64,000 bases of DNA from IMG/VR virus record IMGVR_UViG_3300046167_000801, one strand, 5' to 3'. The position numbers and the translations under genes were made by a program. This DNA is from a virus (Duplodnaviria; Caudoviricetes). How positions within the stretch are numbered: the first letter of the stretch is position 1; every line of letters starts with the position of its first letter. The notes below the pieces were generated by a model. That model did not search any database. It saw nothing but the letters and a program-made list of their open reading frames with translations, and was not told the DNA's origin. Below, one piece after another: positions 3,732 through 54,072 of the stretch.

Positions 3732-4402
3732 TTATAACGGTTTTGATCCGAGAATAGGACCCGAGTTTATTTGTGGACGAATCTTATAAGGTTTCATAGA
3801 CAACGCAATTAATGTACCTTTTGTTTCATCGTCTGTCTCAAACTCAAATTCAATCTCTAACTGTGCAACCGAAGAAATCTTTGGGAGTAACGTAAGTTCA
3901 ATATTAATATCCTTAACGTCATACATACGAGTAAGACCTTAACAATCTTGTGATCTCTCTTAAGTTTTGTCATACACTCTTCCTTAGTGGGAAGGTTGAT
4001 GTTCTTAATAGAACTATTCACTATAGTATCTATGTCATTGGTTGGGTCTTCAATGTCTATGACTTGAGATCTACCTGAGGTATTCTTTATGAAGTCCCCC
4101 GTTCTGCCAATTACTATTGTGGATCCTCCTCCTCTGAGTTCATCTTTTATTATTAGATGATTCAGTGATACGAATTCTTGTCCACTCTGTAGGTGTTCAC
4201 TTTTAATTTGGGTAAGTGATTCTGTTAATACTGTTTGTAGTATATCCCCGAATTTTGAAGTTAGTGTGTCGAGGTCACGAATGGTTACATCGATGTCTAA
4301 TAATAGAATGTCGTTGTATCCATAATAATGTGCGGAATAGGTGTAACCTTCTTTCTCGACATCCGCAATATACTTACTCTCATGTAAATCTAATAGTTTC
4401 AT
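3732..4402 (-). pseudogene. hypothetical protein probably split by a 1-bp frameshift (ORFs 3857..4402 and 3732..3926)
   Basis: Overlapping co-directional ORFs; adding one base near 3932 joins IVKVL to RMYDVKDINIEL. Confidence 0.45.
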
Positions 4403-4517
4403 ATGTATAATAAATATTCGGTTATGCCAAATAAAATCTGAGATGGGACCTGATCTGAGACTCGAACGTTTGCCAATTAAAATCGGGACCGTCGGTGATC
4501 AGGAATCTTGACTCTAT

Positions 4518-4551
4518 AAAAAAAGGGTCTACCTTTCGGATGACCCTCTTT
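4518..4551. terminator. intrinsic terminator hairpin
   Basis: AAAAAAAGGGTC..GACCCTCTTT stem with A/T tracts downstream of minus-strand gene. Confidence 0.7.
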
Positions 4552-4588
4552 AAAAAAAAAATAAATCAGATATTAGACAAAACGTTAG

Positions 4589-4783
4589 TTATGCCGCCGA
4601 TTTCTGTTTTAGTAACTGGTTTCTGAATTTGATTGCCTTTGCTTTGTTAGTAAAGTACTCATCGTAAGCCGTCCCTTTAATAGAAACTCTTACTCTGTAT
4701 CTGTTTCCAGAACCATTAGTTACTTGGTAAATGTTATTACCGAGGTTTGTGTAGCTGTAGCTACCAGTAGTTGACTTTGCCAT
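4589..4783 (-). CDS. small AP2-like DNA-binding protein
   Basis: NIYQ...RYRVRVSIKG...YFTNKAKAIKFRN resembles the AP2/integrase-type three-strand-helix fold. Confidence 0.5.
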   Translation of the reverse strand: MAKSTTGSYSYTNLGNNIYQVTNGSGNRYRVRVSIKGTAYDEYFTNKAKAIKFRNQLLKQKSAA

Positions 4784-5304
4784 ATTACTATTATTTAAAT
4801 GTTTATTACACTAAAGTATACGTAATATTATTTGTAAAGTCAACCCCCCATTGTATAAGATGGTCATCCTACATGTGCCATGATGTCAAAGAACTTTTTT
4901 GAAACCATTTTATAACCGATAAAATGTAATGTATTGTTTGCCAATTAAAATTGACCTCCCTTCACGGGATTCGAGTGGAAAAAAAAGATTAGAAGAGTTT
5001 CAGTATGAAGTGGATTAATATTGTTGCCACCAATATCATAAAACTCCAACCAATCATTTTGTAGGAGGTCTCCATTCTTTGAGGGGATCTACCCTGATTA
5101 CTTCTATACTGTCTAAACTTCTTTTCTTTTTCCATAATTTGTTGTTTTATTATTTAACTTTACTTATTTCCAATTGTCTTTGGAAGAAGTACATTAACTT
5201 CTCTTCAGCTCGTTTCATCTGAACTTCATCTTTTACTTTGGCTGCTGTATCCCACCTTTCCATCCAATAGGATATCTTAGGGAGGAAACCGTTCTTATAC
5301 TTTT

Positions 5305-5502
5305 TCATTGATTCTGTTTTAATAAATCATTAACTTCATCGGAGGTTATATCACTCACGTCGTAGTACCCTGCGATTTCGGTGAGATCTATGTCATCACC
5401 CTTTATCTCAATACCTTCTTGTAAGGTGGTACCATCTAAATCAAATACTGCATTTCTAACTTCTACTGTGCCATAATCTTTAGTTTCTACGGTTCTATTC
5501 AT
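5305..5502 (-). CDS. hypothetical protein
   Basis: ORF in minus-strand cassette, overlapping start/stop with neighbours. Confidence 0.6.
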   Translation of the reverse strand: MNRTVETKDYGTVEVRNAVFDLDGTTLQEGIEIKGDDIDLTEIAGYYDVSDITSDEVNDLLKQNQ

Positions 5503-5959
5503 TGATCTTATTTCTTAAAAATGTTTCTAAATCTAACTTGTTAACGAAGAGAGTCTTGTTTTCTATATAGACGTTCCCTTCGAATCCATCTATATTATGA
5601 TCTGCTATACCTTCCGCTACTGTCCAATATGGTTTCACCCGAGGATTATAAGAGATCCTTATACAGTCCTGCCGATTAAAATTCGACAGGTCCTGAGATC
5701 CTGAAGGAAAAGATATCCATGAACATACTGTTTTGTTGGATCCTCCATGAATCTTATTGGCAGTCTTCTGACTGTTATTAAGTTTACCATCTCTGATCGT
5801 GTATTGGAATTCAGCGGGGGAGAAGTACTCAAGTATACCTTCCACTTTATTCCTTAGTTGCCAATTCATGTAGTTCTTACCCTTGGCCAAATGGAACCTT
5901 AACCTATTGTTCTTAGGTAAGGTATCCATAAATCTCCATTCTTTCTCTATATTAATCAT
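5495..5959 (-). CDS. hypothetical phage protein
   Basis: 154-aa ORF, translationally coupled. Confidence 0.65.
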   Translation of the reverse strand: MINIEKEWRFMDTLPKNNRLRFHLAKGKNYMNWQLRNKVEGILEYFSPAEFQYTIRDGKLNNSQKTANKIHGGSNKTVCSWISFPSGSQDLSNFNRQDCIRISYNPRVKPYWTVAEGIADHNIDGFEGNVYIENKTLFVNKLDLETFLRNKINE

Positions 5960-19583: not shown

Positions 19584-20504
19584 CTATAGTAATCGTTGTG
19601 GCGGTGGGGTAAGTGTAGTTCTTGTCCACTTATAACCATACATTTCATAAACCTCTATATTATCATCACAATATTCTCTCATTAAGGGGGAAGTATATCT
19701 CCAAGGATATTCTAATGGAGTTTCATTAAATATATTAACCTGTGAGGTCGTACTAAAGATATAATCAGGATCGGTGGTATCTTCATGTAACCACTTACCA
19801 ATTATATGACCTTTCTGTTCTATAAGGGAAAAGTAAGGGGAATATACATTTGTGAATTGGTTTGACATTTTGGGACCTACATATTCCAAGTAAAGATCTA
19901 CAGGCATCTGTAGTTTATAATTGTTTGTTAATATGGGGATGTATGTATTGGTCAAGATATATGAATGTGCTCCTATACCTAAATGTGGGTGAGGTACTTG
20001 TATCATATCATCAATAGGGGAACCCGCTATTTGAGAGGTCGTTCTTCCAATCCATATAAGGTGGGAATAATACTTATGTATTTTTTCGAGGAATAATTTA
20101 TAGGTACCGTCATATATGTAATCAATAAGATTATTACTTGGACGGGCATCATCCTCAAGTATAAGGAATTTATCACCTATTGTCTTATGTGCAAGTTCCC
20201 ATACCTTTTTATGTGCAAGTCCAATACCTATCATATTCTCCGTAAGACCCGGCTGAGAACCCTTACCTTGTTGAAGATCGTGCCATTCACCCATCATCTC
20301 ACCACTTCTAAGTAGTTTACCTATATCAAAGTGACCTTTCTTATAATTTACTGAATCAATAAATTCATAATTAAAACCATCGAAGTATTTCCAATCGTCA
20401 ATAAAGGATTGTCTTCTCTTAATATTATCAGGATCACTGATAACGAATATTCTATCACATCCAAAGTTGTGTAAATCTATCTTTTTGTGTACGTACATAC
20501 CCAT
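19584..20504 (-). CDS. glycosyltransferase family 25
   Basis: IGLAHKKVWE ... LILEDDA ... GAHSYILT ... PVDLYL. Confidence 0.75.
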   Translation of the reverse strand: MGMYVHKKIDLHNFGCDRIFVISDPDNIKRRQSFIDDWKYFDGFNYEFIDSVNYKKGHFDIGKLLRSGEMMGEWHDLQQGKGSQPGLTENMIGIGLAHKKVWELAHKTIGDKFLILEDDARPSNNLIDYIYDGTYKLFLEKIHKYYSHLIWIGRTTSQIAGSPIDDMIQVPHPHLGIGAHSYILTNTYIPILTNNYKLQMPVDLYLEYVGPKMSNQFTNVYSPYFSLIEQKGHIIGKWLHEDTTDPDYIFSTTSQVNIFNETPLEYPWRYTSPLMREYCDDNIEVYEMYGYKWTRTTLTPPPQRLL

Positions 20505-20588
20505 AAATATAATACGTATAAAAGTTTTTAGGTAGGGTTTATGGTTAAATAATAATTTCCTAATATTTATATAGAAACATAATATAAG

Positions 20589-21623
20589 ATGAAGAAAATT
20601 AAACTTACCGAATCACAGGTAGCAAAACTTTTAAACGAGGATTCTTTTAAATCCATTAAAAATATATTTTGGCATTCAAGAAATTCACTTAAATCAGGTA
20701 ACGGTACTCTTGATAGAAACACAATAAGAAGTATCGCTAACAATTTATATGATGCAATGAAAGGTGCGGGTACTGATAATGATGCTATTACTGATAATCT
20801 TGAAAAATGTAAAAACTTACACGATTTTAAAAATGTGAGATATAAGTTCTACAAAATGTATAACGAAAAGTTACTTACTTGGTTAGATGGTGATATTGAT
20901 GGTGACGGTGAGTGGACTACAACAGTACTAAGACCACTACAACGTATTTATGATGTATCTAAAGCTGCGGGACATTTCAATCCACCTAAAAAAGTTAAAA
21001 CAAGTGAACTTGAAAAAGAAATAATGAAAACATTAGGATGTTTAAAAGATACACCTGGATATGAGTTCCAAAAAGACTCTTCTGATGGAAAAGGTATTTT
21101 CTTTAAATCAACTGAAGGTGAATTCTTCCTCTTTAAAGATGGAACGTTAGCTAAAAAGAAAGAGAATAGTAGGAAATACGATTATTTTAAAAATAAAACA
21201 GAGTGTACGGATTCGAAGTACATCTCAACCATTAATCAAAGGGATGGTGAGGTTACAGAAACTGATTCCCTTATGGAAAAGTCAGGTTTAAACTTAAACC
21301 CTGATGGGGTAGTCGGTTCTAAAACTGAACCAGAAGTAAAGTCAACAAGTACTACTAATAATACAACCACTACAGGAGATACAAAAACTAAATCAACCGT
21401 TGCAACAGCGGTAACTGCAAATGCGGGTGGATCCGTATCGGATTTCCAACAAAAACTGAAAGATGCAGGGTTTGGTAATAGTTTAGGTGCTGTAGATGGA
21501 AAATTAGGACCAAAGACAGCGAGAGCGGCTATGGAATTCATTAAATCAAAAGGTTTATTATCTGAAACTGATGAGTTACCACTAAATGAACAAATAAGTC
21601 AAAACTTTAAAAGATTTCTATAA
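20589..21623 (+). CDS. putative virion/ejection protein with annexin-like repeat and C-terminal peptidoglycan-binding domain
   Basis: LYDAMKGAGTDNDAI...F...Y...L...LDGD; FQQKL...GF...VDGKLGPKTARA. Confidence 0.65.
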   Translation: MKKIKLTESQVAKLLNEDSFKSIKNIFWHSRNSLKSGNGTLDRNTIRSIANNLYDAMKGAGTDNDAITDNLEKCKNLHDFKNVRYKFYKMYNEKLLTWLDGDIDGDGEWTTTVLRPLQRIYDVSKAAGHFNPPKKVKTSELEKEIMKTLGCLKDTPGYEFQKDSSDGKGIFFKSTEGEFFLFKDGTLAKKKENSRKYDYFKNKTECTDSKYISTINQRDGEVTETDSLMEKSGLNLNPDGVVGSKTEPEVKSTSTTNNTTTTGDTKTKSTVATAVTANAGGSVSDFQQKLKDAGFGNSLGAVDGKLGPKTARAAMEFIKSKGLLSETDELPLNEQISQNFKRFL

Positions 21624-21988
21624 TGAAGAAAATCAGACTTACAGAAGAACAATTAAATAGACTTGTAGAAACTACTACAGTCTTTAAAGACGAACACAAA
21701 ATGAAAGAAGATGTTGATTCGGAATTAGGTGAACAAACACAAGCCATAATGAAAGCAATTAAAAAGGCTGAAGAAGATAGTAAGAAATGTGAATGTGGAT
21801 GTGTTAAAGGTGAATGCAAGTGTGGACCTGATTGTAAGAAGTGTGACTGTGGTAAAGAAAAAGAAACTAAAGAGGATTGGAATCCTAATGCATCGGTAGG
21901 TACACAACCTGGTGGGTTAATGCAAGGAGCACACTTTCCTAAGTGGATACAAGAAAATAAGAATAACTTTAAAAGATTAATTAAGTAA
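21623..21988 (+). CDS. hypothetical protein with Cys-rich cluster
   Basis: MKKIRLTEEQ N-terminus; CECGCVKGECKCGPDCKKCDC. Confidence 0.65.
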   Translation: MKKIRLTEEQLNRLVETTTVFKDEHKMKEDVDSELGEQTQAIMKAIKKAEEDSKKCECGCVKGECKCGPDCKKCDCGKEKETKEDWNPNASVGTQPGGLMQGAHFPKWIQENKNNFKRLIK

Positions 21989-22311
21989 TGAAAAAAATAA
22001 CTTTAACAGAGGAACAATACAACAGACTATTTGAATCTAAGGTAGTTTCAGAACAAAATGAATCAGCGTGGACATCTATGGATGATGATGAGAAAAGAGA
22101 GTATCTTCAGAGTTTCACATCTGATGGAGATAAAATAGAACAAATGTTACGTAGTCCTGAGGATCCTACAAAAGAATTTGAAGGAATGAGTGATGATGGT
22201 TCAATAGGTGACATCTCTGTTGAAAGATCAACTTCAGAAATATTAGATGATATGGATGGAGATATAGATGAATTAAAAAGATCAATATCCGTGATTAAAT
22301 CACGTATGTAA
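21988..22311 (+). CDS. acidic hypothetical protein
   Basis: MKKITLTEEQ N-terminus. Confidence 0.65.
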   Translation: MKKITLTEEQYNRLFESKVVSEQNESAWTSMDDDEKREYLQSFTSDGDKIEQMLRSPEDPTKEFEGMSDDGSIGDISVERSTSEILDDMDGDIDELKRSISVIKSRM

Positions 22312-22488: not shown

Positions 22489-22621
22489 ATGATTTATAAA
22501 GTAAAAATAACTTACTTCAACAATGAGTCCTCTATAGAGGAATTTGATACGTCAGATATACAGTGGACTATGGAAGAATACCAAAGAAACAGAAAACCCT
22601 TTTCAATGGGAGATCCTTTAG
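22489..22621 (+). CDS. small hypothetical protein (likely true end ...KPFQWEIL*; extra T at ~22600)
   Basis: Removing one T in a T4 run ends the ORF at ~22621 and removes a 75-bp overlap with the minus-strand gene. Confidence 0.4.
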
Positions 22622-23442
22622 GTAACGGCTCTACCCTTCATCTGTTCCCAATCCCTTACAGTACGTACTTCATCATTAGTCGTCTCAGCTGAACTCAACA
22701 CGAAGTTATTTGTTCCGAGTTCATAAGTGAGTCTAATTATTGCTGATAAGTCCTTAGGGAAACAATGACCCCCAAATCCAAAGTCTCCATCATGTCCAGG
22801 TACTGACCAATGAGATTGACCTAATCTCTGATCTATAGTAGCATATTCTACTACCTTGTCATAATCAATCTCCAACTTATTACATAACTCGTACATCTCG
22901 TTTGCAAAGGAGACCTTTACAGCGAGGAACGTGTTCGTTAGGTACTTGACCATCTCGGCGTGTGTAGAACTCGTTTTAATGATCCGTGAGTTAGGGAACA
23001 CTTTAGAGAAGATCTGTTTTAGGTCGGTAGTATGTGGTCGGTCACCACCGAGAATTATTCTGTCTTGATTATCATAATCTTTTACTGCATTCCTCTCTGT
23101 TAGAAACTCAGGATTAAAGACTATATTAAGAAACTCATATTTTAGGTTTAGTTTTTCTGTGGTCCCACATATAACTGTAGATTTTAAGACGATAGTCTTA
23201 GGTGAATCAGTTATTTGGTTGACCTCTTCTAAAACCTCTTCTATAATGTCTATATTACAACTCCCATCAGTATTCATAGGAGTTGGTAGACAGACAAATA
23301 TATACTTAGAGTTTAATATTAAGTCTCTTAAAGTTGAGTTGTGATCCGATTTATATTTATCGTACGTTAGTACGTCATAATGGTTCTTAAATTTTTGGTA
23401 TACTGCATTTCCGACAAACCCTTGTCCTATTACTCCTATCAT
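22618..23442 (-). CDS. UDP-glucose/GDP-mannose dehydrogenase family protein
   Basis: GVIGQGFVG, VCLPTP, KSTV, FNPEFL, AEMVKY..NTFLA.K.SFANE, GFGGHCFPKD. Confidence 0.9.
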   Translation of the reverse strand: MIGVIGQGFVGNAVYQKFKNHYDVLTYDKYKSDHNSTLRDLILNSKYIFVCLPTPMNTDGSCNIDIIEEVLEEVNQITDSPKTIVLKSTVICGTTEKLNLKYEFLNIVFNPEFLTERNAVKDYDNQDRIILGGDRPHTTDLKQIFSKVFPNSRIIKTSSTHAEMVKYLTNTFLAVKVSFANEMYELCNKLEIDYDKVVEYATIDQRLGQSHWSVPGHDGDFGFGGHCFPKDLSAIIRLTYELGTNNFVLSSAETTNDEVRTVRDWEQMKGRAVT

Positions 23443-24365
23443 ATGTAATCTTTTGTTTCTAAATAATCTTTTAAGTTTATTGTTGTAAAATCTTCCCCTA
23501 CTACTCTGTGTAGTTTTGAGGAGTCTAATCCGTAACGTCTATCGTGTCCTAATCTATCAGGTACATTATTGAACTGTACGGGTTTCTTTAATATATCCCC
23601 TATCATACGTAATATTGATTTATTCGTATATCGATCCCCCGATCCGATATTCCATATACCGTACTCTTCTTTCATTAGTTTGAGTATCATCTTTACGTTG
23701 TCTTCCACCCAAATCCATTCTCTTACCTGAGACCCGTCTCCATAAAGTGGTACAGGTATCTCTTGATAGATACATTCCATTACCGTAGGTAAGAACTTTT
23801 CTAAGTGTTGATGGTCCCCATAATTGTTACAGGTCCTTGTGATAAGGTATGGAATACCATACGTCTTATTTGCCGATATTACTATTTGATCCGCCGAAGA
23901 TTTTGAGGCGGAATAATAAGACGATGGTTTACATACGTCCCCCTCACGAGATAAATGGTTTAATCCATAATGACTCTCCGTTAAATCTCCATAAACCTCA
24001 TCCGTTGATATTTGTACGAACTTCTTCAGTTTACTCATCCTACGTGCAATTTCTATTAAATTATACGTACCTAATATGTTTGTTTGTATAAATGGTGAAC
24101 CATCCTCTATAGAATTATCTACATGTGACTCCGCCGCAAAGTTTACAATGTAATCTACATCTCCTATCTCTTCGTACGTAATCTCACATATGTCCCGCCG
24201 AACGACCGTGACCCCTTCGGGGAGTCTTTCAGGGTTGGATGCATAAGTCATTTTATCTACCACGATAATTTCATGGTTCGTCTTGTTTGTGTGGTTACGT
24301 CGGTATAATAGATTTACAAATGATGAACCTATAAACCCCGCACCTCCTGTGACGAGTATTTTCAT
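23439..24365 (-). CDS. rfbB: dTDP-glucose 4,6-dehydratase
   Basis: TGGAGFIGS, NFAAESHVD, ISTDEVYG, YSASK, RTCNNYG, DRLGHDRRY. Confidence 0.9.
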   Translation of the reverse strand: MKILVTGGAGFIGSSFVNLLYRRNHTNKTNHEIIVVDKMTYASNPERLPEGVTVVRRDICEITYEEIGDVDYIVNFAAESHVDNSIEDGSPFIQTNILGTYNLIEIARRMSKLKKFVQISTDEVYGDLTESHYGLNHLSREGDVCKPSSYYSASKSSADQIVISANKTYGIPYLITRTCNNYGDHQHLEKFLPTVMECIYQEIPVPLYGDGSQVREWIWVEDNVKMILKLMKEEYGIWNIGSGDRYTNKSILRMIGDILKKPVQFNNVPDRLGHDRRYGLDSSKLHRVVGEDFTTINLKDYLETKDYI

Positions 24366-24448
24366 TTAATTAAAAAATTACGTTGTAAACTACAAAACAT
24401 ATATAACCACCGAATATGGTAAGTAATATCACGTTCTCTAGTTTTATC

Positions 24449-25177
24449 TTATTCTTCATAGGATAATTTATTAAGGTTTAAACTAAAGTCTTTTTCTTGA
24501 TCTAAAGTTGTACTCTTTACATTGGGATTTCTTTTAATTGCATAATCGTACGTACTCTTTCTTTCAGTACCTACGTTGATTACCCCCTGAATATTATTAT
24601 TAATCGATACGTTCATTATAAGTGGTGATATGACATCTACATAATCCTTTGAGGTATATAGGTTGTCATAACCATACTCGTATGGGAATTTATCTTTACC
24701 AAAACTCGTACGGATAATTAAATGGTCTTTTACAAACCTTACACTACATTCTCCCCCAAGTTTACTCCACGCATATAAATTATATGGATTCACAGGATCT
24801 TCTTCAGAATGATTACCTGTTCCATCATAAACATAGTCTGTGGAAATATAGACTAATCTCTTATCGTAACCTATACAGTAGTTGGATATATTGGAAGTAC
24901 CAATGATATTGGTTGTAATAAAATCAATTTCATTATCACTAACCTTATTATTGTCTATAAGAGCCGCAGTATGAATAATAATATCATAAGTGTCTAATAA
25001 TTTAAAAGAAGATGGTTTAGTAATATCCACCTGATCTTTAGTAAATAATTTTATGTTGGGATTACATACCTTTAACTGTTTGGCAAGTAAACCTCCACCA
25101 CCTAAAACCGCAATATTCTTAATTCCGTCATTCATATAAACGAATATGTCTCCTGGATAAATTCTACGTATCGACAT
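24449..25177 (-). CDS. rfbD: dTDP-4-dehydrorhamnose reductase-like SDR
   Basis: LGGGGLL, YISTDYVYDG, P.NLYAWSKLGGE. Confidence 0.75.
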   Translation of the reverse strand: MSIRRIYPGDIFVYMNDGIKNIAVLGGGGLLAKQLKVCNPNIKLFTKDQVDITKPSSFKLLDTYDIIIHTAALIDNNKVSDNEIDFITTNIIGTSNISNYCIGYDKRLVYISTDYVYDGTGNHSEEDPVNPYNLYAWSKLGGECSVRFVKDHLIIRTSFGKDKFPYEYGYDNLYTSKDYVDVISPLIMNVSINNNIQGVINVGTERKSTYDYAIKRNPNVKSTTLDQEKDFSLNLNKLSYEE

Positions 25178-25292: not shown

Positions 25293-26183
25293 ATGAAAAA
25301 AAAGACACTATTAGAAGACCTTAAAAGGATACACACCCTAACTTATGGTGATCATAAGACAAATATGATTGTTGAAGGGTTGTTTGACGGTGATGACACC
25401 AAAGCGGACGAGGTTTCTGATGATGTTAGTGAATTCATGGATAATTTAAAACAAAGTTCTATTAGTGGGTTATCCCAAGAAGAAAAGGGTGACATGGAAT
25501 ACAAGAAAAGTGTCGAATCCATGCAAATTTCGTTAGTTTTATTAGGTTATGAGTTACCTGTACATGGTATAGATGGTTTATTTGGTCCTGAAACTGCAGG
25601 TGCGGTAAAACAATTCATGAATGACAACCAAATAGAGGTTGGTAATGAGGAAATGTTATTAGTTACCCCCGAAGTAATGGATTTATTAACTAAAAAGGTA
25701 CAAGAAAAGGGTATTAATAGTGAAGATCTTAAAAAACACGTAAATAAACCCTTAAAACACGATGGTTCAATGGGTGAAAAGACCGATGGTGTAACAATTG
25801 CCACTTATTTAATGAAAAAACGATATTCTAAATCACAAGCGGCAGGAATTGCGGGTAATTTGTATGTAGAATCAGGTTATAGAACTGGTGTTATAGGGGA
25901 TAACGGTACTTCTTATGGTTTAGCTCAGTGGCACAAGACAAGATGGGAACGTTTGAATGAATTTTGTGAATCTGAAGGGTTAGACCCATCAGAAGCGGAG
26001 TCTCAACTAATATATTTGGATTGGGAACTACGTACACGTGAAAAAAGAGCGTATAAAGAGTTAATGAAGACCGATACTCCTTATGATTCTGCATATGCAT
26101 TTGCAAAATACTTCGAAAGACCACGTAGAATAAATCCTAAGAGAATGTCTAAAGCCGAAGAAATCTATAACCGTTTACCATAG
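25293..26183 (+). CDS. peptidoglycan-binding domain + phage tail-type lysozyme
   Basis: GIDGLFGPETAGAVKQF; QAAGIAGNLYVESG...GDNGTSYGLAQW...RW. Confidence 0.8.
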   Translation: MKKKTLLEDLKRIHTLTYGDHKTNMIVEGLFDGDDTKADEVSDDVSEFMDNLKQSSISGLSQEEKGDMEYKKSVESMQISLVLLGYELPVHGIDGLFGPETAGAVKQFMNDNQIEVGNEEMLLVTPEVMDLLTKKVQEKGINSEDLKKHVNKPLKHDGSMGEKTDGVTIATYLMKKRYSKSQAAGIAGNLYVESGYRTGVIGDNGTSYGLAQWHKTRWERLNEFCESEGLDPSEAESQLIYLDWELRTREKRAYKELMKTDTPYDSAYAFAKYFERPRRINPKRMSKAEEIYNRLP

Positions 26184-33114: not shown

Positions 33115-33681
33115 ATGGAAAAACTTTTATTTAAACAAGGGTATTATTCAGTATATGAAGTAACTGTCAGGAGTAAAACTAAGTATAGGGTCGATAGTGG
33201 GAAGACATTATTTGTCGCAAGATTTAATAAGTATATTCCAAATCCATATCGTGATATTAAAGATTTCACATCATTAACTAAGGCCAAGGAATATGTTTCT
33301 AAAAAATTAAAGAAGAGTAAATCGGTAAAGAAAAAGAAATTAGATAAAGTACCTAAGTCTTTGTATTTGGTTTTGTTAAAAGAAGAGAAGTCAGGTAAGA
33401 CATTTGTTAAAGTGGGTATCACCTCAAAAAGATTTATAATGAGACGATTCTCCAAAAAATACGGGTATGAAGGATATACCTTAGAATCTATACTTCGTAG
33501 GTTAGACACCCCTCGAGCGGAAAGATTGGAAGAAAGTATAAAACTTACTTTAAAAAAGAAAAGATCTGTAAAAAGTTACAGACCTCTTTTGGAAAGTTTT
33601 GGTGGTTACACTGAATGTTACGAATATGGTTCTTTAGAGACCATATTAAAAGTATTTGATTCGGCAACTAAAAATGTTTAG
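33115..33681 (+). CDS. GIY-YIG/T5orf172-like nuclease
   Basis: LYLVLL.....FVKVGIT...RF...GGYTEC. Confidence 0.55.
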   Translation: MEKLLFKQGYYSVYEVTVRSKTKYRVDSGKTLFVARFNKYIPNPYRDIKDFTSLTKAKEYVSKKLKKSKSVKKKKLDKVPKSLYLVLLKEEKSGKTFVKVGITSKRFIMRRFSKKYGYEGYTLESILRRLDTPRAERLEESIKLTLKKKRSVKSYRPLLESFGGYTECYEYGSLETILKVFDSATKNV

Positions 33682-34028
33682 CCTATACCTAACCAATTTA
33701 GGAATTTATCAATGATATCACCGTGTTCGGATCTACAAGATTTCATAATCTTGACTTCCTTATCTGTTAATTTTGATGCCGTGTTTGGTCCCCACACCCC
33801 ATCTACAGGGTATAATTTTTTCTTACTTTGGAAATTTTCAATGGCCTTTCTTGTACCATCACCATGTAAACCATCTACTTTTAGTTTAGCTCCCATAGTT
33901 TTATTTAAAAAACATTGTACCGCCTTTTTAAAATTTAACTCGGATGTCTGTTCAGTTACTAATTTTTCCTCAACGACGTTGTCGAGAATTTTCTTTACTT
34001 GTCCCTCTGTAAAAATGTATTTTTTCAT
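33678..34028 (-). CDS. peptidoglycan-binding domain protein
   Basis: VQCFL...LKVDGLHG..TRKAIENFQ....VDGVWGPNT. Confidence 0.75.
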   Translation of the reverse strand: MKKYIFTEGQVKKILDNVVEEKLVTEQTSELNFKKAVQCFLNKTMGAKLKVDGLHGDGTRKAIENFQSKKKLYPVDGVWGPNTASKLTDKEVKIMKSCRSEHGDIIDKFLNWLGIG

Positions 34029-38832: not shown

Positions 38833-40086
38833 ATGGCAAAAAACGGAAAAATATTTATTCAGATCGCATCCTATAGAGATCCAGAACTGATTAACACCTT
38901 AGATGATTGTATTGATAAGGCAGACAAACCTGAAAAGTTGGTATTTGGTATTTGTTGGCAACACTCTGATGAAGATGAGTGGGACAATATAGACAAATAT
39001 AAAGATGATAAAAGATTTAAAATTGTTGATGTCAATTATAAAGACTCTAAAGGTGCGTGTTGGGCAAGAAACACACTACAACAAGAATATACAAACGAGG
39101 AGTATACATTACAGTTAGATTCCCACCACAGATTTATTGAGGGTTGGGATACTGAACTTATAAAGATGTTGAAGGGGTTACAAAAGAAAGGACATAAAAA
39201 ACCTTTATTGACTTCTTATATTTCATCTTATAATCCAGAGAACGACCCTGAAGGAAGAGTTAAAGTTCCATGGTTAATGAACTTTGATAGGTTTATACCT
39301 GAAGGTGCGGTTTTCTTCTTACCCGCAACAATACCGGGTTGGGAAAAGATGACAGAACCAATACCTGGTAGATTCTACTCGGCACATTTTGCATTTAGTT
39401 TAGGTAGTTTCGTTAAAGAAGTACCTCACGATCCCGAGTATTATTTCCACGGTGAAGAAATAAGTATTGCGGTAAGATCGTACACCCATGGTTATGACTT
39501 ATTTCACCCACACAAAATTATCGCTTGGCACGAATATACTCGTAAAGGTAGAACCAAACAATGGGATGATGATAAAACTTGGGGTGATAGAAATACTAAC
39601 TCTCATTTACGAAATAGGAAGTTATTTGAAATGGATGGTTTAGAGAAGGATATAGATTTTGGGATTTATGATTTCGGTACTGAAAGAACTTTAGAGGATT
39701 ATGAAAGATATGCGGGTGTCAATTTCAAAAAGAGATCCGTACAGGAGTATACAAAGAAAAATAATTTTGCACCAAACCCACCTCTATATGGTGAGGAATA
39801 TGAATCATCTTGGACGAGATCATTTAAACATTGTATTAATATACATAGGTCTTCCGTTACTGAAAAAGACTACTCATTTTGGGCGGTTATTTTCGAAGAT
39901 GAGGATGGTACACCTATACACAGAGAAGATTTAAATAAACAACAAATAGACACTTATCTTAACAGTTCAAAGGACACATTTAATGTGTGGAAAGAATTTG
40001 AAACTGTTAGACAACCTCAAAAGTGGATTGTTTGGCCACACTCGGAATCTAAGGGTTGGTTAGAAAAAATAGAAGGTAAATTATGA
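38833..40086 (+). CDS. GlcNAc-transferase (GT60/Gnt1-like)
   Basis: IFIQIASYRD, GACWARN, LQLDSHHRF, FHGEEI, G.DLFHP. Confidence 0.75.
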   Translation: MAKNGKIFIQIASYRDPELINTLDDCIDKADKPEKLVFGICWQHSDEDEWDNIDKYKDDKRFKIVDVNYKDSKGACWARNTLQQEYTNEEYTLQLDSHHRFIEGWDTELIKMLKGLQKKGHKKPLLTSYISSYNPENDPEGRVKVPWLMNFDRFIPEGAVFFLPATIPGWEKMTEPIPGRFYSAHFAFSLGSFVKEVPHDPEYYFHGEEISIAVRSYTHGYDLFHPHKIIAWHEYTRKGRTKQWDDDKTWGDRNTNSHLRNRKLFEMDGLEKDIDFGIYDFGTERTLEDYERYAGVNFKKRSVQEYTKKNNFAPNPPLYGEEYESSWTRSFKHCINIHRSSVTEKDYSFWAVIFEDEDGTPIHREDLNKQQIDTYLNSSKDTFNVWKEFETVRQPQKWIVWPHSESKGWLEKIEGKL

Positions 40087-40911
40087 AAAAAGTATTAACA
40101 GGATTTAGTAATAACATATCCCAACATAAAAATAAAATTAAATGGTGGGTAGAAAGTTTTAGAAAACATTCAGACGCGGAGATTGTTTTAATTGCCTGCA
40201 AATACCACAGATGAAGATAGACAAGCACTAGAAGATCTTAAGGTAAAATATGTGGAGGTTATTGAGGAGGACACATGGAGAATTAACCACCAAAGACTAA
40301 TTCACACAAGAAATTTTATAGAGTCTTATGATGCTGATTTATTTTTAGCTACAGATGTATTTGACGTTTTATTTCATTCAGATCCTTTTGAGATGTTAGA
40401 TACCGATAATCATGATATATGGTTTAGTAGAGAAGGTATTTTAGTTAGGGAAGAACCGTGGAACGCGGATGTATTAAAAAAGACATTTCCTAATGAAGTA
40501 CAATCATGTATGAATACTGAGATAGTTTGTTCGGGTATAATGGCGGGTAAGAAAGATGCATTTGTAAAGTTGTACGATAAAATGTATGAAATGTGTGAAA
40601 ATAGTGAAGACGGACATAATATTAAAGATCAGGCGGCACTAATCGTTTTAGTTAAAGATCAATGGATTGAGAATCTAAGAATCTTTGATTTAGATGAGGG
40701 GTGGGCAATGCATTGTGCAACGTCGGGACCAACACAGTACTTTACTCAATGGGGTATGAAAAACAACATTATAGGTAAGGGTTATGGAATACCCGAATTA
40801 AAGGAAGACGGTTTCGTTTATAATAGTAAAACAAATAATAAATACACCATGGTTCACCAATTCAATAGAATTGAGGAGTGGTCAAATATTTTAACAAAAG
40901 AGTATGAGTAG
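40083..40911 (+). pseudogene. glycosyltransferase-like protein with 1-bp frameshift at ~40197
   Basis: ATG 40083 reads MKKVLTGF...EIVLIA then stops at ~40214; removing one base joins it to ORF 40192..40911 (ANTTDEDRQ...TDVFDV). Confidence 0.6.
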
Positions 40912-41665
40912 AAATATTGCATGTATGTGTACGATGTCACATCAACACAATAGGTTAGATACCGATTGGTTACCTCTTATAACCAAAGATAATTATGATA
41001 AGGAATTAATTGTTGATGTTACAAAAGACCAGTCATTTAAACCCGGTTTTCACTTTACCGAGGATGAGGTTAGAACAAATCTTAATTTTCCACATAATGT
41101 AAGTAAGAGACATTATTGGAATAGTCATGGTAACAGGAACATCATTTGGTTTCATGCACATTTACGTATGTTAAATTTTTACTTATCTAATCCTGATTAC
41201 GAATATTATTGGTTTTTCGATGATGACGTAAGAATAGATGATTGGAATTCATTTTTAACTCAGACAGATACAGATGATTCCGATTTCATATCATATTTTG
41301 TATTTAAAAAAGATGGGGTTAATAGTCAACCTAATGTCCCTGTGATAGATAATAGAACAACATCATCACACATGTGGTTAGAGAGATTCCCTGGTGACGG
41401 GGATACACTACCGGATGGTATTACAGAATGGTTTGGTTCATTCTTCCCTACAGTAAGGTATTCTAACAGGGCAATGAAAAAATTATTAGAATTAAATAAT
41501 CAAGGTTACCATGGTTATGGTGAAGGGTTTGTACCGACAGTCTTAAATCAATGTGGTATGAAAATAACAAGTTTAATTACTTCAAATGATGATTCTAATT
41601 TATTTGATTTTGGAAACAATAAAATTTGGCACAAAAACACAATTGTAGATTGGGCATGGATATAA
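40904..41665 (+). CDS. glycosyltransferase-like protein
   Basis: YEYYWFFDDDV DxD motif in glycan cluster. Confidence 0.55.
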   Translation: MSRNIACMCTMSHQHNRLDTDWLPLITKDNYDKELIVDVTKDQSFKPGFHFTEDEVRTNLNFPHNVSKRHYWNSHGNRNIIWFHAHLRMLNFYLSNPDYEYYWFFDDDVRIDDWNSFLTQTDTDDSDFISYFVFKKDGVNSQPNVPVIDNRTTSSHMWLERFPGDGDTLPDGITEWFGSFFPTVRYSNRAMKKLLELNNQGYHGYGEGFVPTVLNQCGMKITSLITSNDDSNLFDFGNNKIWHKNTIVDWAWI

Positions 41666-43008
41666 AGAACACTACTATAGTTACCGCAATATTTGATATT
41701 GGTAGAGATGAGTGGGACAACTTCACAATGTCTTACCACACCTACTTAATGTGGATGAGAAACATTCTTTTTTTAGATACCAATATGGTAATCTACACTG
41801 AGGAAAAATTTAAAAAACAGATCATTGATTTTAGGAAAGAGGTTGATCCAACATTAGAAAAAACAATTATTGTTATTGAACCATTAGAAAATATCATTGG
41901 TTATAAGAAGTTCTTTAATCCTCTCAATACTTTAATGTCTAGTGAGTCCTTCAAATCTAAAATACAATTTCAAGTACCTGAAATGACTAAACCACTTTAT
42001 AACGTGGTTATGTTTGCAAAACTTTTTTACATATTAGATGCACATAAAAGAAACTTATTTAATACTGATTTATTTGTGTGGGCGGATGCGGGTGTACTAA
42101 GAAACGATAAACCTGAATTAGGTATTAGTTGGCCCGATACACAGAAAATAAATGAATTAGATAATAATAAAGTAACCTTCTTTTGTCACCATCCTTATGT
42201 TAGGGTTGGTGAGGATCATTATGAACAACATGCATTATCTCAAATGAGATATATACAAGGTGGTTCCATTTTCGTACCTAAGAAGTGTGTTGATGAGGTA
42301 TGTGAGATATTTGAAGATGTTGTGAAAGAGTCTGTAGAAGGTGGGTACGTTGGTAGTGACGAAAAAATGTTTGACTTCTTATACTTGAGAGATCCAAATA
42401 AGTATAACCTAATACAATGTGGTTGGAGGGAGTATATAGATTTATTTACAAGTGATAAGGATTTGAAAGTAGTTGTGTCAAGATACGACGAAGATACTTC
42501 TTGGACCAATAAACTAAATTATGAATCAATTATATTCAATAAAAATGAATCGGATAATCACCTGTATGAAAATAATTTACCTAATGTTGGTAGAGAAACT
42601 CATACATTCATGTCATATATAATTGACAATTATGATAACCTACCTAATTACGTTGCATTTGTCCAAGGTAATCCATTTGATCATTGTAATGACGTAATAA
42701 ATGATATCAACGGATTTGATTTCAAGAGTGAATTTTTACCTTTAGGTAGAGTGAATAGATATAATATGGAATATGAGTCTATTGATGATCAGATGAGATC
42801 TTTCGGTGAAACTATGGGTATCAACATAACTTTCCCTTCATATAACGTACCGGGTGCACAACACATAATCAGTAGAAGGTTAATTAGAAAACACCCTATT
42901 GAGTTTTATAAAAAAATACATTCTTTAGTTAATACTGAACTATATCCTTTCTCATGTTTGGATTTTGAGAAGACTTTATTTCAAATATACGGAATATATA
43001 ATGTTTGA
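41626..43008 (+). CDS. HtrL/YibB-family domain fused to DUF3431 domain
   Basis: TTIVTAIFDIGR...YNVVMFAK...WADAG; VVSRYDED..W ... NVGRE.HT...I..NYDNLP....F.QG.PFDH. Confidence 0.7.
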   Translation: MAQKHNCRLGMDIKNTTIVTAIFDIGRDEWDNFTMSYHTYLMWMRNILFLDTNMVIYTEEKFKKQIIDFRKEVDPTLEKTIIVIEPLENIIGYKKFFNPLNTLMSSESFKSKIQFQVPEMTKPLYNVVMFAKLFYILDAHKRNLFNTDLFVWADAGVLRNDKPELGISWPDTQKINELDNNKVTFFCHHPYVRVGEDHYEQHALSQMRYIQGGSIFVPKKCVDEVCEIFEDVVKESVEGGYVGSDEKMFDFLYLRDPNKYNLIQCGWREYIDLFTSDKDLKVVVSRYDEDTSWTNKLNYESIIFNKNESDNHLYENNLPNVGRETHTFMSYIIDNYDNLPNYVAFVQGNPFDHCNDVINDINGFDFKSEFLPLGRVNRYNMEYESIDDQMRSFGETMGINITFPSYNVPGAQHIISRRLIRKHPIEFYKKIHSLVNTELYPFSCLDFEKTLFQIYGIYNV

Positions 43009-44083
43009 TTATCTAATAGTTGGTAGTGGATTTTTTGGGTCTATTTGTGCTAGAGAACTTACTGACAAGGGCAATAAAGTTTGTGTAATTGAAAATAGGA
43101 ACCATATCGGTGGTAACTGTTACACATCAAATAGAGACGGTATAAATGTTCATGACTATGGTCCTCATATTTTTCACACCTCAAACGAAGAGGTATGGAA
43201 ATGGATAAATCAATATGCGGACTTTAATAATTTTACTTTAAGACCAGTTGCAAATTACGAAGGTGAGGTTTATTCCTTACCATTTAATATGTGGACATTC
43301 TCCAAATTATGGGGAGTTACTCATCCTTATGAAGTTAAAGAGATAATTAAACAACAAAGTTCTCATATTAATAATCCAAAGAATTTAGAAGAACAAGCAA
43401 TTAAACTCGTTGGGGTTGACGTATATGAAAAGTTAATAAAGGGGTATACGGAGAAACAGTGGAGAAAAAATGCAACTGACCTACCTAAAGAAATAATTAA
43501 AAGATTACCTGTTAGATTTACATACGATAACAATTACTTTAATGACAAGTACCAAGGAATTCCCGTAGGTGGATATACTCAAATATTTGAGAAACTTTTA
43601 GAGGGTATTGAAGTTAGGTTGGAGACTGATTTTTTTAAGAGTAGATTACCGAAACATAAAAAAGTAATTTATACGGGACCCATTGATAGGTATTTTAATT
43701 ATGAGTTTGGTGAGTTGGAATATAAGACTACAGAGTTTCATCACAAAAAGATGGGGACCGACAATTATCAAGGTGTTGTAATGATGAACTATACTGAAAA
43801 GGATATTCCCTACACTAGAACTATTGAACATAAACACTTTGAAGACATAGAGTCTGAAAATAGTTGGGTTACATGGGAATACCCCACCGAATATAAGGCG
43901 GGTTTAACAGAACCTTACTATCCTGTTAACGATAAGGAGAATACTAAAATCTATAAGAAGTATAAAAATTTAGCTGATAAGGAAAAGGATGTTTACTTTG
44001 GTGGTAGATTGGCGGAATACAAATACTATGACATGCATAAGGTAATTGAGTCCGCACTTAATTTTATAAAAAAAACCCTCTGA
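43001..44083 (+). CDS. glf: UDP-galactopyranose mutase
   Basis: MFDYLIVGSG, HIGGNCY, YGPHIFHT, YTEKQW, PVRFTYDNNYFNDKYQGIP, GRLAEYKYYDM. Confidence 0.93.
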   Translation: MFDYLIVGSGFFGSICARELTDKGNKVCVIENRNHIGGNCYTSNRDGINVHDYGPHIFHTSNEEVWKWINQYADFNNFTLRPVANYEGEVYSLPFNMWTFSKLWGVTHPYEVKEIIKQQSSHINNPKNLEEQAIKLVGVDVYEKLIKGYTEKQWRKNATDLPKEIIKRLPVRFTYDNNYFNDKYQGIPVGGYTQIFEKLLEGIEVRLETDFFKSRLPKHKKVIYTGPIDRYFNYEFGELEYKTTEFHHKKMGTDNYQGVVMMNYTEKDIPYTRTIEHKHFEDIESENSWVTWEYPTEYKAGLTEPYYPVNDKENTKIYKKYKNLADKEKDVYFGGRLAEYKYYDMHKVIESALNFIKKTL

Positions 44084-44882: not shown

Positions 44883-45494
44883 ATGAAATTTATTCTAAAA
44901 GAGTCTCAACTTATAAATATCTTCAAATCTGAGTTCGGTGTAACACTTAATGAAAATGTTATCGCTAAGTTTCTGGATATATATGGTAAGGCCATGTCAG
45001 GTGACGGTAATTCTTCAGGATATAGTGGTGGTTTTAACCCTAATTTTGACTATCAGGGTCTTCCACCCGAAAATTTTAATCAAATTGATATATGGCCAGT
45101 AAATGGGGCACGATTAACAAGTGGGTTTGGTCCAAGGAATATTGGTGGTCGTGCAAGTAAAAACCATATGGGTTGTGATTTAGGTGTACCATCAGGGACA
45201 CCCGTATATGCCGTCGCAAATGGAAAAGTAAAAGCGGCAAGAGACACTTCACCAAATGGATGTGGTGGTTTTGTTAAAATACAACACAAAGATTATTCAA
45301 CTAAGTATTGTCACTTGAAACGGTGGGATGTAAAAAAGGGAGATGAGGTCTCTAAAGGACAACAAATAGGATTAAGTGGTGGTGCGAGTAATGACCCTTT
45401 TAAAGGTAATTCTATGGGTGCTCACCTACATTACGAGGTCTTAGATGGTGAAAGACATATAGATCCTGTTAAGGTCCACGGAAGACTTTCGTAA
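44883..45494 (+). CDS. M23 family peptidase
   Basis: TSGFGPR, HMGCDLG...GTPVYA..G.V, YCHL, G.SMGAHLHYEV. Confidence 0.88.
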   Translation: MKFILKESQLINIFKSEFGVTLNENVIAKFLDIYGKAMSGDGNSSGYSGGFNPNFDYQGLPPENFNQIDIWPVNGARLTSGFGPRNIGGRASKNHMGCDLGVPSGTPVYAVANGKVKAARDTSPNGCGGFVKIQHKDYSTKYCHLKRWDVKKGDEVSKGQQIGLSGGASNDPFKGNSMGAHLHYEVLDGERHIDPVKVHGRLS

Positions 45495-47479: not shown

Positions 47480-47722
47480 ATGAAGATATGCGTAACTGAG
47501 AAACAGTTAGATTTAATTGTCTCAAATCAAACTGAATTTGTTGAACAGGAAGATGGAACAGAAACAGGTACCGGCGATGCATCAGGTGGTGGAACAACCG
47601 CGGGGAGTAAACAATGGGAGAGTGGAGTGACAAGAGGTCCTGACAATCAAATAGGTGTTACTAAGTGGTCTGATGTAGTTGGATCAAAAATAACTAGAGG
47701 CAAGGCAAACCCACTATATTAA
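47480..47722 (+). CDS. hypothetical protein
   Basis: MKICVTEKQL motif; internal W.SGVTRG/W.D...TRG repeat. Confidence 0.6.
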   Translation: MKICVTEKQLDLIVSNQTEFVEQEDGTETGTGDASGGGTTAGSKQWESGVTRGPDNQIGVTKWSDVVGSKITRGKANPLY

Positions 47723-47724
47723 TT

Positions 47725-48942
47725 ATGGTATTACAAAAAACAGGTTTAATATTAGAAAGACATAATAGTATCTTAGACTATAATGGACATACAAACCAAA
47801 CTAAAGATTTAATTAGGACGGACAAAGTACTATTTGAGGCGTTTATTACAGTTGACGAAAGGTATTTCGTAATGAACGATCATGTTATAGACATACAAGA
47901 ACAAACTAACTTAGGTTATTTATGGGACTCATTGGATGTCTTTAAAAAGATATTCGGTAATGTACAGGTAGATGATTCCGAATATAGAGAAATACAAGAG
48001 GGTATCTCAACATTACCTTTACTTGAGAATAAATCAGATTTATATTTAATACGTGACATCCTAATAGAGGGATTTTGGAGTTCTGTGGGAGATGGTCTTG
48101 CGGACTTTGGAAATTGGGCTAAGGATAAGGTTGTGGCGGCAGGAAAAGGCATCGCAAATTTCGCAAGTAGTGCGTGGAATAACATAAAGAAGTTTGGTAT
48201 CGCAATATCAGAACTTGACTTCAAAAAAGTCTTATCTATGATTGGTAAGGGTGTATTATGGGTTCTAAGAAAATTTAAGGACGCGGCGTACTCTACGGTA
48301 GGTATTATTGTAGATGCAATTTTGGTGGCTACAGGTATTGGTAAACCCGTACAAGCTGTGTTTTGGGGATTAGTTACAGGTTTAGATGTATACCAATTGG
48401 CAAGTGGTGATTGGGAACCAAAAGGAACCCCAACTTGGGAGAAATGGTTAGACCTTGTTTGTGATATAATCGGACTATTAGGTGCGGGTGTTGCTGCTAA
48501 AGGTGCAAGAGGTTTAGTAAAAGGAATTAAGTCCGCAACTCAAATACCAAAATTTGTAAAAAAGAACAAGGCAATAATGAATATCATAATTAAACTAAAA
48601 AATGGGGCATCATGGGTTATCAGTAAAATAACCTCAGTCTTAAAAGGTTTAAAAGGAAAATGGAAACCTTTAGATAAGTTTATTGATAAGATTCTTTCTT
48701 TTTGTAAGAAGATATTCACAGGTTTAAAGAATTTCGTTAAGAAAATATTCCCCGATCCGGTTAAACTTACAGGAAAACAAAAACTTAAGAGAGGTGTAAA
48801 AGCGGGGGGTGCCGCGACAACTATCATGTACGGTATTGATAAATACTCTGAAAAAAAGGGTAAAGAATCCGCATTGAAAGTAGATCAGGCAATAGATAAC
48901 ATTGATTTGTCAAGCGCAGAGTTTGACTACGACGAGATTTAA
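47725..48942 (+). CDS. putative virion/ejection protein with hydrophobic segments
   Basis: 405 aa; central ILIE|GFW site, hydrophobic IIVDAILVATGIG..FWGLV. Confidence 0.55.
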   Translation: MVLQKTGLILERHNSILDYNGHTNQTKDLIRTDKVLFEAFITVDERYFVMNDHVIDIQEQTNLGYLWDSLDVFKKIFGNVQVDDSEYREIQEGISTLPLLENKSDLYLIRDILIEGFWSSVGDGLADFGNWAKDKVVAAGKGIANFASSAWNNIKKFGIAISELDFKKVLSMIGKGVLWVLRKFKDAAYSTVGIIVDAILVATGIGKPVQAVFWGLVTGLDVYQLASGDWEPKGTPTWEKWLDLVCDIIGLLGAGVAAKGARGLVKGIKSATQIPKFVKKNKAIMNIIIKLKNGASWVISKITSVLKGLKGKWKPLDKFIDKILSFCKKIFTGLKNFVKKIFPDPVKLTGKQKLKRGVKAGGAATTIMYGIDKYSEKKGKESALKVDQAIDNIDLSSAEFDYDEI

Positions 48943-48975
48943 AGAAAAATAACTATTTATATAAAAAATTAACGA

Positions 48976-52234: not shown

Positions 52235-52257
52235 TGAGGATCCCTTTTCACACTTAG

Positions 52258-53995: not shown

Positions 53996-54072
53996 TGGTG
54001 GACCTTGATGGGCTCGAACCATCGACCTATCCGTTATGAGCGGAGTGCTCTAACCAACTGAGCTAAAAGTCC
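53996..54072 (-). tRNA. tRNA with CAT anticodon, probably Ile2 (lysidine type)
   Basis: GGACTTTTAGCTCAGTTGGTTAGAGC...CTCATAA...GGTTCGAGCC...TCCACCA. Confidence 0.85.

Follow-up and report, generated by a model that had tools for sequence, protein, structure and literature searches.

Annexins are the textbook Ca2+- and lipid-binding proteins of eukaryotes, and the question raised by a 64,000-nucleotide stretch of viral DNA (IMG/VR record IMGVR_UViG_3300046167_000801, Caudoviricetes; hereafter the window) is what use a bacteriophage could have for an annexin repeat joined to a peptidoglycan (PG)-binding module. The gene concerned encodes a protein that we call P0001. An initial annotation, made from the letters alone, had placed the feature at 20640-21623; the open reading frame (ORF) is real, but position 20640 is codon 18 and the ATG lies at 20589. 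Sequence comparison and predicted structure confirm that the repeat is a genuine annexin repeat, a domain call about as solid as these two kinds of evidence permit. As to its use, we tentatively favour a virion-loaded envelope tether that would hold lipid through Ca2+ and murein through its PG-binding domain, a reading that falls a little short of probable and that draws on sequence, on structural models and on analogy with phage T4.

The annexin repeat and the protein around it

The Annexin family of Pfam (PF00191) matches residues 50-107 of P0001 with 27.7 bits (gathering cut-off 25; E 3e-6), and the string from which an annexin-like repeat had originally been proposed, LYDAMKGAGTDNDAI...LDGDIDG, corresponds to residues 53-105. 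When a profile built from 24 members of the P0001 family was compared with PDB sequences, 87 matched at E <= 1; annexins account for 60 of the 60 among the matches listed, with annexin VI reaching E 1.3e-23 summed over its repeats (23.5 bits for the best single repeat). The AlphaFold model places helices at residues 43-58, 64-72, 77-91, 95-102 and 107-126 at a predicted local distance difference test (pLDDT) score of 80-93, and every top Foldseek match to this model is an annexin. The two checks suggested at the outset, the Pfam Annexin hidden Markov model and AlphaFold with Foldseek, both came out in favour of the proposal. A Foldseek-independent fold search against 48,161 PDB representatives gave the same picture: its ten best matches are all annexins or giardins or come from the annexin-like domain of astrotactin-2 (Z 9.9-6.5), with unrelated helical repeats ranking below them at Z ~6 or less. 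Domain 1 of annexin I (1bo9) aligns with the P0001 repeat over 73 of 73 residues at a root-mean-square deviation (rmsd) of 1.6 Å and Z 9.3, and the annexin-type matches overall lie at Z ~10 and rmsd 1.6-2.2 Å over 72-76 residues.

Within the P0001 family the best-conserved parts of the repeat are the K-G-x-G-T loop and the acidic D-x-D-I-D-G loop, the two loops through which annexins bind Ca2+. In the first of these, the AB loop, G61 and T62 never vary, G59 is conserved at 90% or more, and K58-G-A-G-T62 is aligned opposite KGLGT of annexin VI. In the second, the DE loop, W98, D100, D102, I103, D104 and W109 are conserved at 90% or more, and D102 stands opposite the Ca2+-capping Glu of the annexin VI repeats in the HMMER alignment. 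At the sequence level the type II Ca2+ site pattern, K-G-x-G-T with an acid ~38 residues downstream, is thus present in P0001 with one extra residue between the two parts. In our own reading, the DE loop may also serve as a Ca2+ loop of the DxDxDG type. Like the eukaryotic annexins A1-A13 and the giardins, P0001 combines a five-helix repeat with the K-G-x-G-T loop and an acidic capping position; unlike them, it has an expanded DE loop (D-G-D-I-D-G-D-G-E), the extra residue between G-T and the capping acid, and a single repeat in place of the four-repeat core. A four- or eight-repeat core was looked for, and one Pfam match and one folded repeat were found; a second K-S-G-x-G-T motif, at residues 35-40, falls within a low-confidence region. 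A homodimer prediction for two copies of residues 36-134, run with an alignment, scored 0.00 and is evidence for neither outcome.

The claim that this repeat is joined to a PG-binding module holds as well. PG_binding_1 (PF01471) matches residues 280-321 with 26.6 bits, which, like the Annexin match, is above the gathering cut-off (23), and the model shows helices at 283-299 and 308-320. The fold matches of this region are modest (SltB3, the SleB N-domain and 5tv7, Z 4.6-5.0). Between the two modules lie a middle domain and a linker. The five strands of the former are predicted at pLDDT 75-86 and its two bracketing cysteines, C151 and C206, are invariant in the family; the same fold search returned no convincing known fold for residues 134-207 (the best match, staphostatin at Z 4.6, is not meaningful), and since the fold is unrecognised this domain might conceivably be a novel small enzyme. 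The linker falls below pLDDT 50 over residues 209-231 and 241-280, contains 16 Thr and 8 Ser in 72 residues and differs in length between homologues, and the protein ends in a tail, ...NFKRFL, that is conserved among family members.

P0001 has no hydrophobic segment by the Kyte-Doolittle measure (the score over 19 residues peaks at 0.36 and nowhere passes 1.6) and would therefore have neither a signal peptide nor a membrane anchor, which makes Sec export unlikely. No catalytic family is found among its Pfam and PHROG matches, and the endolysin PHROGs that do match cover only residues 196-325, which correspond to the linker plus the PG-binding module; a role as a hydrolase is therefore unlikely. 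P0001 thus resembles the phage proteins that carry PG_binding_1 modules, such as phiKZ gp144 and the Burkholderia AP3 endolysin, and virion-associated hydrolases, in joining a three-helix module through a linker to a second module, but differs from them in having an annexin repeat as the partner and no recognised hydrolase domain. It differs from spanins, holins and membrane-anchored annexin proteins in having no transmembrane segment or lipoprotein signal. Sequence and model together show that this T4-like jumbo phage encodes in P0001 a soluble protein of modular build, which consists of a leader, an annexin repeat, a beta domain, a linker, a PG_binding_1 domain and a basic tail.

The family comprises 23 metagenomic homologues of 320-376 residues (one is a 231-residue fragment) with identities down to 31%, and the exact P0001 sequence occurs on 48 contigs, the longest of 303,588 bp. 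Neither tblastn with P0001 nor blastn with positions 19000-26000 gave any match among 50,697 phage records, so that no relative was found in cultured phages.

A shared leader in a T4-like jumbo phage

P0001 is the first of three genes in an operon in which each stop codon overlaps the next start by one base. The three proteins are otherwise unrelated in sequence, yet they have in common a strict leader, MKKIxLTExQ..L.E, with two Leu-x-Glu sites of protease type. In the P0001 family the leader residues M1, K2, K3, L6, E8, S9, Q10 and E17 are invariant, and both Leu-x-Glu motifs vary little or not at all. The second and third genes stay beside the annexin gene in the four orthologous loci L001-L004. 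No Pfam family was found for ORF 2; its C-terminal end, ...PGGLMQGAHFPKWIQENKNNFKRLIK, is conserved, and on a 302-kb contig (L118) it is split into ORFs of 52 and 68 residues.

Looser variants of the leader stand on six further ORFs of the window, which together with the operon makes at least nine otherwise unrelated ORFs (Table 1). The pattern also extends well beyond the window: a back-translated MKKIxLTExQ pattern found 107 stretches in IMG/VR (loci L008-L114), many of them on contigs of more than 100 kb. Many of the stretches also stand at the start of unrelated proteins, dozens in all, and continue as Q-(L/F/I/V)-x-x-(L/I)-(I/L)...E, which the pattern does not demand. A group of proteins of 226-228 residues that begin MKKIELTESQ.SEIIKLY... 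was not counted as evidence for the leader, as they resemble an unrelated helix-turn-helix (HTH)/HNH family. Pfam searches of ten leader-tagged proteins from other viral contigs gave no family for most of them, PG_binding_1 for one and an EF-hand-like match for another. The cargo of the leader is, on these assignments, diverse, and its enrichment in wall-active proteins is seen within the window alone.

Both ends of P0001 have counterparts in the head genes of the clade. The clade scaffold protein (4266..5570 on the contig at L115) begins MSKKSILEQ and ends ...QFKRMKDLMSKL, and a core-region protein next to it contains VKLTES. All three operon ORFs end in an [FL]KR tail, which is found on five of the 91 ORFs of the window against 1.15 expected and which may be a second tag that binds coat or core. 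The operon tails lie at 21564..21620, 21940..21985 and 22270..22308, and are basic and similar to the scaffold C-terminus.

The motif ATATTTAT[AT] lies 3-18 nt 5' of 12 ORF starts in the window, seven of which are leader-tagged, and its spacing from the start codon falls into two classes, 3-6 nt and 15-18 nt. It is kept 5' of P0001 orthologues, including a 41%-identical one in L004, despite diverged flanks. In the head module (L115) the full motif precedes the portal gene, and its core, TATTTAT[AT], is found ahead of the genes for protease and scaffold. We regard the motif as a candidate late promoter or start signal of leaderless mRNAs. The T4 late promoter TATAAATA was considered in its place and set aside: it is not enriched in the window (19 copies against 15 expected) and has no + strand copy 5' of P0001.

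Head genes on related contigs indicate the type of phage. The IMG/VR contig (G001) that carries a 41%-identical P0001 orthologue in the same gene order also encodes Gp23 and a gp21-type Peptidase_S77, and a protease 88% identical to the latter occurs on contigs of which the longest has 303,588 bp, the same figure as for P0001 and for P0002, a second protein of interest in the window. Around this 88%-identical protease the order of head genes is terminase, portal, S77 protease, scaffold, Gp23. These T4-type head genes in the same clade bear out the assignment of the annexin protein to a phage. The nearest cultured relatives of the clade capsid protein are distant T4-type phages, namely Microcystis Mel-JY01, Rhodothermus RM378 and the Flavobacterium 'immuto' phages. 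The window has a G+C content of 33% and contains four tRNAs and one tmRNA, and a cohesin protein with a type IX secretion system (T9SS) tail encoded within it points to a Bacteroidota host. The phage can be described as an uncultured, abundant marine, T4-like phage of ~300 kb with Flavobacteria-like hosts.

Table 1. Positions in the window of the annexin gene, its parts and the other features discussed (strand and basis given where assigned)
Feature	Position	Strand	Basis or remark
Promoter-like motif ATATTTATA	20563..20571	+	17 nt 5' of P0001 ATG
P0001, annexin / PG-binding protein gene	20589..21623	+	ORF, 344 aa
N-terminal leader MKKIKLTESQVAKLLNE, residues 1-17	20589..20639	+	Leu-x-Glu twice: L6-T7-E8, L15-N16-E17
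Annexin repeat (single), residues 43-126, helices A-E	20715..20966	+	Pfam, PDB profile, model
AB loop K58-G-A-G-T62, endonexin K-G-x-G-T motif	20760..20774	+	Family conservation, annexin VI alignment
DE loop D100-G-D-I-D-G-D-G-E108, flanked by W98 and W109	20886..20912	+	Family conservation
Small beta-rich middle domain, residues 134-207	20988..21209	+	Five strands; bracketed by invariant C151 and C206
Thr/Ser-rich low-confidence linker, residues 209-279	21213..21425	+	Model pLDDT, composition
PG_binding_1 domain, residues 280-321	21426..21551	+	Pfam, above cut-off
C-terminal tail ...LNEQISQNFKRFL of P0001	21564..21620	+	Kept across family
Operon ORF 2, 121 aa, leader MKKIRLTEEQLNRLVE	21623..21988	+	Cys-rich cluster CECGCVKGECKCGPDCKKCDCG, tail NFKRLIK
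Operon ORF 3, 107 aa, acidic, leader MKKITLTEEQYNRLFE	21988..22311	+	
PG_binding_1 + Phage_lysozyme2 protein, leader-like MKKKTLLE	25293..26183	+	Upstream motif at 17 nt
Looser-leader ORFs without Pfam family	29138, 29391(-), 47480		
PG_binding_1 protein, 116 aa, leader-tagged (MKKYIFTEGQVKKIL)	33678..34028	-	Pfam, 36.1 bits
Peptidase_M23 protein, 203 aa, leader-tagged (MKFILKESQLINIF)	44883..45494	+	Pfam, 89.7 bits
P0002, 704 aa, leader-like MKLIDIIQE	48976..51090	+	
P0002 annexin-like fold, residues ~346-441	50011-50298		Predicted model
P0002 PG-binding-like fold, residues ~490-560	50443-50655		Predicted model
PG_binding_1 + Amidase_2 protein, leaderless	55242..56123		Pfam

Several further genes deserve mention. 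The tmRNA (52255..52640, - strand; Rfam RF00023, 65 bits against a cut-off of 47) has the tag peptide VDSKVAVA according to ARAGORN, and the tRNA cluster (Met, Arg, Leu, Glu) adjoins it at 53996..54805. In the head module a homologue of ribosomal protein S21 (PF01165; L115, 2738..2929, - strand) lies between the portal region and the prohead protease. Near the right-hand end of the window an AAA+ protein resembling ATP-dependent proteases (62064..63998, - strand; PHROG 4871, E 8e-238) runs past the window end.

Proposed delivery to the envelope and its alternatives

The arrangement just described resembles, by analogy, the way in which T4 loads proteins into its head, where a capsid targeting sequence (CTS) brings internal proteins into the prohead core (PMC9958956). 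T4 IPI, IPII, IPIII and Alt, whose CTS is removed by the gp21 protease (PMC9958956), are like the proteins studied here in that a short N-terminal peptide stands on unrelated small proteins encoded in tandem. The likeness extends to the end of the leader, (L/I)-x-E, and to the head genes, since the phage clade has a protease of gp21 type together with a scaffold and a gp23 capsid protein. The two systems differ in their cargo, which here would be directed to the wall and membrane and in T4 to cytoplasmic targets. On the T4 system PMC9958956 cites Mullaney and Black (1996).

On the tether model, P0001 would be synthesised late, alongside the head genes; its leader with the Leu-x-Glu sites would load it into the virion much as the T4 CTS does with its cargo, and the head protease of gp21 type would trim it. 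Upon infection P0001 would be released into the host envelope, where the annexin repeat would grip an anionic phospholipid leaflet at millimolar Ca2+ while the PG-binding domain would hold murein, and the linker of ~70 residues would bridge the gap, so that the protein would tether membrane to wall at or near the site of entry. Ca2+ is millimolar in seawater and in the periplasm and not in the cytoplasm; for this reason the annexin repeat would be inactive at the site of synthesis, the cytoplasm, and would become active upon delivery. P0001 belongs to a leader-tagged, wall-directed set that includes the M23 peptidase, the tail lysozyme, the protein with a PG-binding domain only, and P0002. The shared leader with its Leu-x-Glu sites, the gp21-type protease of the clade and the tagged wall-active proteins together make delivery of P0001 at infection plausible. 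The initial annotation had proposed a Ca2+-triggered bridge from membrane to wall while DNA is ejected, which is a reasonable, if hypothetical, mechanism.

A number of observations weigh against this model. Compared by eye, the leader of P0001 (MKKIKLTESQ...) and the T4 CTS, which we take to be MKTYQEFIAE, share only the Met-Lys start and the end Glu, and L-T-E-x-Q is also a common way for a helix to start. Some of the IMG/VR hits to the leader pattern are HNH/HTH-type proteins and are probably irrelevant. In the window the upstream motif exceeds its expected frequency only mildly (19 copies versus ~12 in shuffles), and a lone annexin repeat may bind membranes weakly. Furthermore, the P0001 gene sits among sugar-nucleotide and glycosyltransferase genes, outside the structural module; these genes lie at 19584..20504(-), 22618..25177(-) and 38833..44083, and include GT25, a truncated-looking UDP-glucose dehydrogenase, an epimerase/dehydratase, an RmlD-like gene and HtrL/YibB. 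Finally, the internal proteins of T4 enter the cytoplasm, not the periplasm (PMC9958956), and delivery of P0001 to the wall would therefore require a different route.

Late expression would suit a role in lysis equally well. In such a role P0001, made late, would remain in the cytoplasm with its annexin repeat inactive at low Ca2+ and would gain the periplasm only through holin lesions; Ca2+ would then enable lipid binding, and protein concentrated at the wall by the PG-binding domain would aid the endolysin or destabilise the outer or inner membrane. P0001 shares with canonical endolysins the lack of a signal peptide, endolysin families in PHROGs match it through their PG-binding parts, IMG labels it 'peptidoglycan hydrolase-like', the motif 5' of its gene is of late type, and the logic of Ca2+ as a switch between compartments fits here too. 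Nevertheless, P0001 has no recognised catalytic domain, and its gene does not adjoin that of the candidate endolysin, the leaderless PG_binding_1 + Amidase_2 protein of Table 1, which is more likely than P0001 to be the ordinary endolysin. A part in lysis also leaves the leader on unrelated proteins, the Leu-x-Glu sites and the scaffold-like tail unexplained, and overall we consider it unlikely.

The nature of the other tagged proteins raises another alternative. Phage_lysozyme2 (the 'phage tail lysozyme' of Pfam) and Peptidase_M23 are of the type found in virion-associated hydrolases, and tail-associated lysins can carry PG-binding domains, so P0001 might instead be a component of the tail or baseplate in which the leader is an uncleaved assembly helix and the domains grip wall and membrane during penetration, beside the tagged lysozyme and M23 peptidase. 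Against this stand the Leu-x-Glu motifs, which are invariant as cleavage sites would be, and the scaffold-like N- and C-termini of P0001, and we rate such a location as improbable. More improbable still is a membrane patch on the cytoplasmic side, in which P0001, injected or made early enough to act, would bind the inner leaflet upon Ca2+ influx through puncture or holin lesions and seal or delay leakage, with the 'PG-binding' fold serving as a protein-interaction module: eukaryotic annexins are indeed Ca2+-triggered repair proteins and T4-type internal proteins do enter the cytoplasm (PMC9958956), but the PG_binding_1 match exceeds its curated threshold and the pairing with annexin is found again in other phage proteins, which favours real wall binding, and the invariant Cys pair suggests an oxidising compartment.

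A second locus and annexins as a phage module

The tether model, which remains our preference, gains context from other annexin-like proteins. The initial annotation had suggested that the protein encoded at 48976..51090, P0002, may be a more degenerate equivalent of P0001; the predicted fold agrees with this, whereas an annexin match at the level of sequence was not obtained. P0002 has no Pfam match, none of the 23 family members gives an annexin match with Pfam, and a profile of the family finds no annexin in the PDB; PG_binding_3 and PG_binding_1 appear below threshold in eight and five of the 23 relatives, respectively. The model of residues 345-560 (mean pLDDT 72) begins with five helices and ends with three, the two parts being joined by a disordered Gly/Ser/Asp linker. 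In a Foldseek-independent search the seven best PDB matches of the first part are annexin-type (Z 8.7-8.1, annexin VI at Z 8.7), with domain 1 of annexin I aligning over 73 of 73 residues at 2.1 Å and Z 8.4, and the second part matches PG-binding domains (SleB-N at Z 7.7, 4xxt, the AP3 endolysin and phiKZ gp144). For helical domains, Z values of 8-9 are of middling strength, and they support an annexin in P0002 at the level of fold only.

The two proteins are not recognisable as relatives by sequence: BLASTP and hhalign of the whole proteins gave zero matches, and hhalign of the two annexin-region alignments, which does recover the expected register, gave E 0.009 and a probability of 4.5%. Given this weak comparison, the link between P0001 and P0002 is one of predicted fold. 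Homology of their Cys-bracketed beta domains (residues 132-210 of P0001 and 268-342 of P0002) was likewise discarded, with an hhalign probability of 0.5%. In our own reading of the sequence, the AB loop of P0002 would be G-D-S-(T/S)-D-M in place of G-x-G-T-D-E, with Leu at the position of the capping acid, and with these changes the canonical Ca2+ site has probably been lost. P0002 also has a hydrophobic stretch of membrane type, residues 222-250, in which the Kyte-Doolittle score peaks at 2.11 (residue 228). Its neighbours at 47725..48942 and 51077..51769 have N-termini of L-x-E type (MVLQKTGLILE and ...LVNKELNE) and Gly-rich hydrophobic stretches, and the block at 47480..51769 may be a single module of membrane-active leader-tagged proteins.

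When the 93-residue annexin region of P0001 was searched against 1.8 billion proteins, 342 cluster representatives matched at E <= 1e-3. Leaving aside the multi-repeat annexins, the matches of 240-360 residues with a single repeat are proteins nearly all of which begin with leader-like helices (for example MKKLYFLNEEE.NRILNLHE..., ...RIKLMMEYD..KTL.EN and MKKIxLTESQ) and most of which have a hydrophobic segment ahead of the repeat. One of these phage-like relatives, P0195, combines an annexin repeat (26.1 bits) with PG_binding_1 (43.3 bits), as P0001 does.

We found no published description of a viral annexin in the literature, and a survey of bacterial annexins that catalogued about thirty bacterial homologues found none in viruses (Kodavali et al. 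2014, PMC3894181). P0001 is like the bacterial annexins of that survey, from Cytophaga hutchinsonii, Kordia, Aquimarina and other Bacteroidota, in having a stand-alone non-eukaryotic repeat with the endonexin G-x-G-T loop, in combining it with non-annexin domains or membrane segments, and in its setting among marine Bacteroidota. Unlike them, it is encoded by a phage and carries an N-terminal leader of phage type; the word 'peptidoglycan' does not occur in the paper, and a fusion with PG_binding_1 is hence not among the architectures it describes. P0001 sets a familiar fold in an architecture and a biological context, a virus, that are both new, and it forms part of a broader pattern among T4-like jumbo phages that has yet to be published.

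It is conceivable, if doubtful, that annexins are regular cargo of a large head-loading system in the T4-like jumbo phages of Bacteroidota. The LTE-x-Q / L-x-E leader would in that case address dozens of unrelated proteins to the capsid, and a subset combining annexin and PG-binding domains, with or without a membrane segment, would enter the envelope and, with the steep Ca2+ step from cytoplasm to periplasm or seawater as a switch, fix membrane to wall or close the wound left by entry. If this is true, P0001 would provide the first case of a viral annexin with a function, and prokaryotes would have their own counterpart of the membrane repair that annexins carry out in eukaryotes. What gives the protein its interest is a clean single repeat, with Ca2+ loops under selection and a fusion to a wall-binding domain, in an abundant ocean phage. 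As a simple, soluble protein of 344 residues, P0001 offers a test case for membrane binding by one annexin repeat, for ties between membrane and murein at phage entry or exit, and for LTE-x-Q as a capsid tag; should the leader act like the T4 CTS, it would provide a protein-packaging handle for the phages of Bacteroidota.

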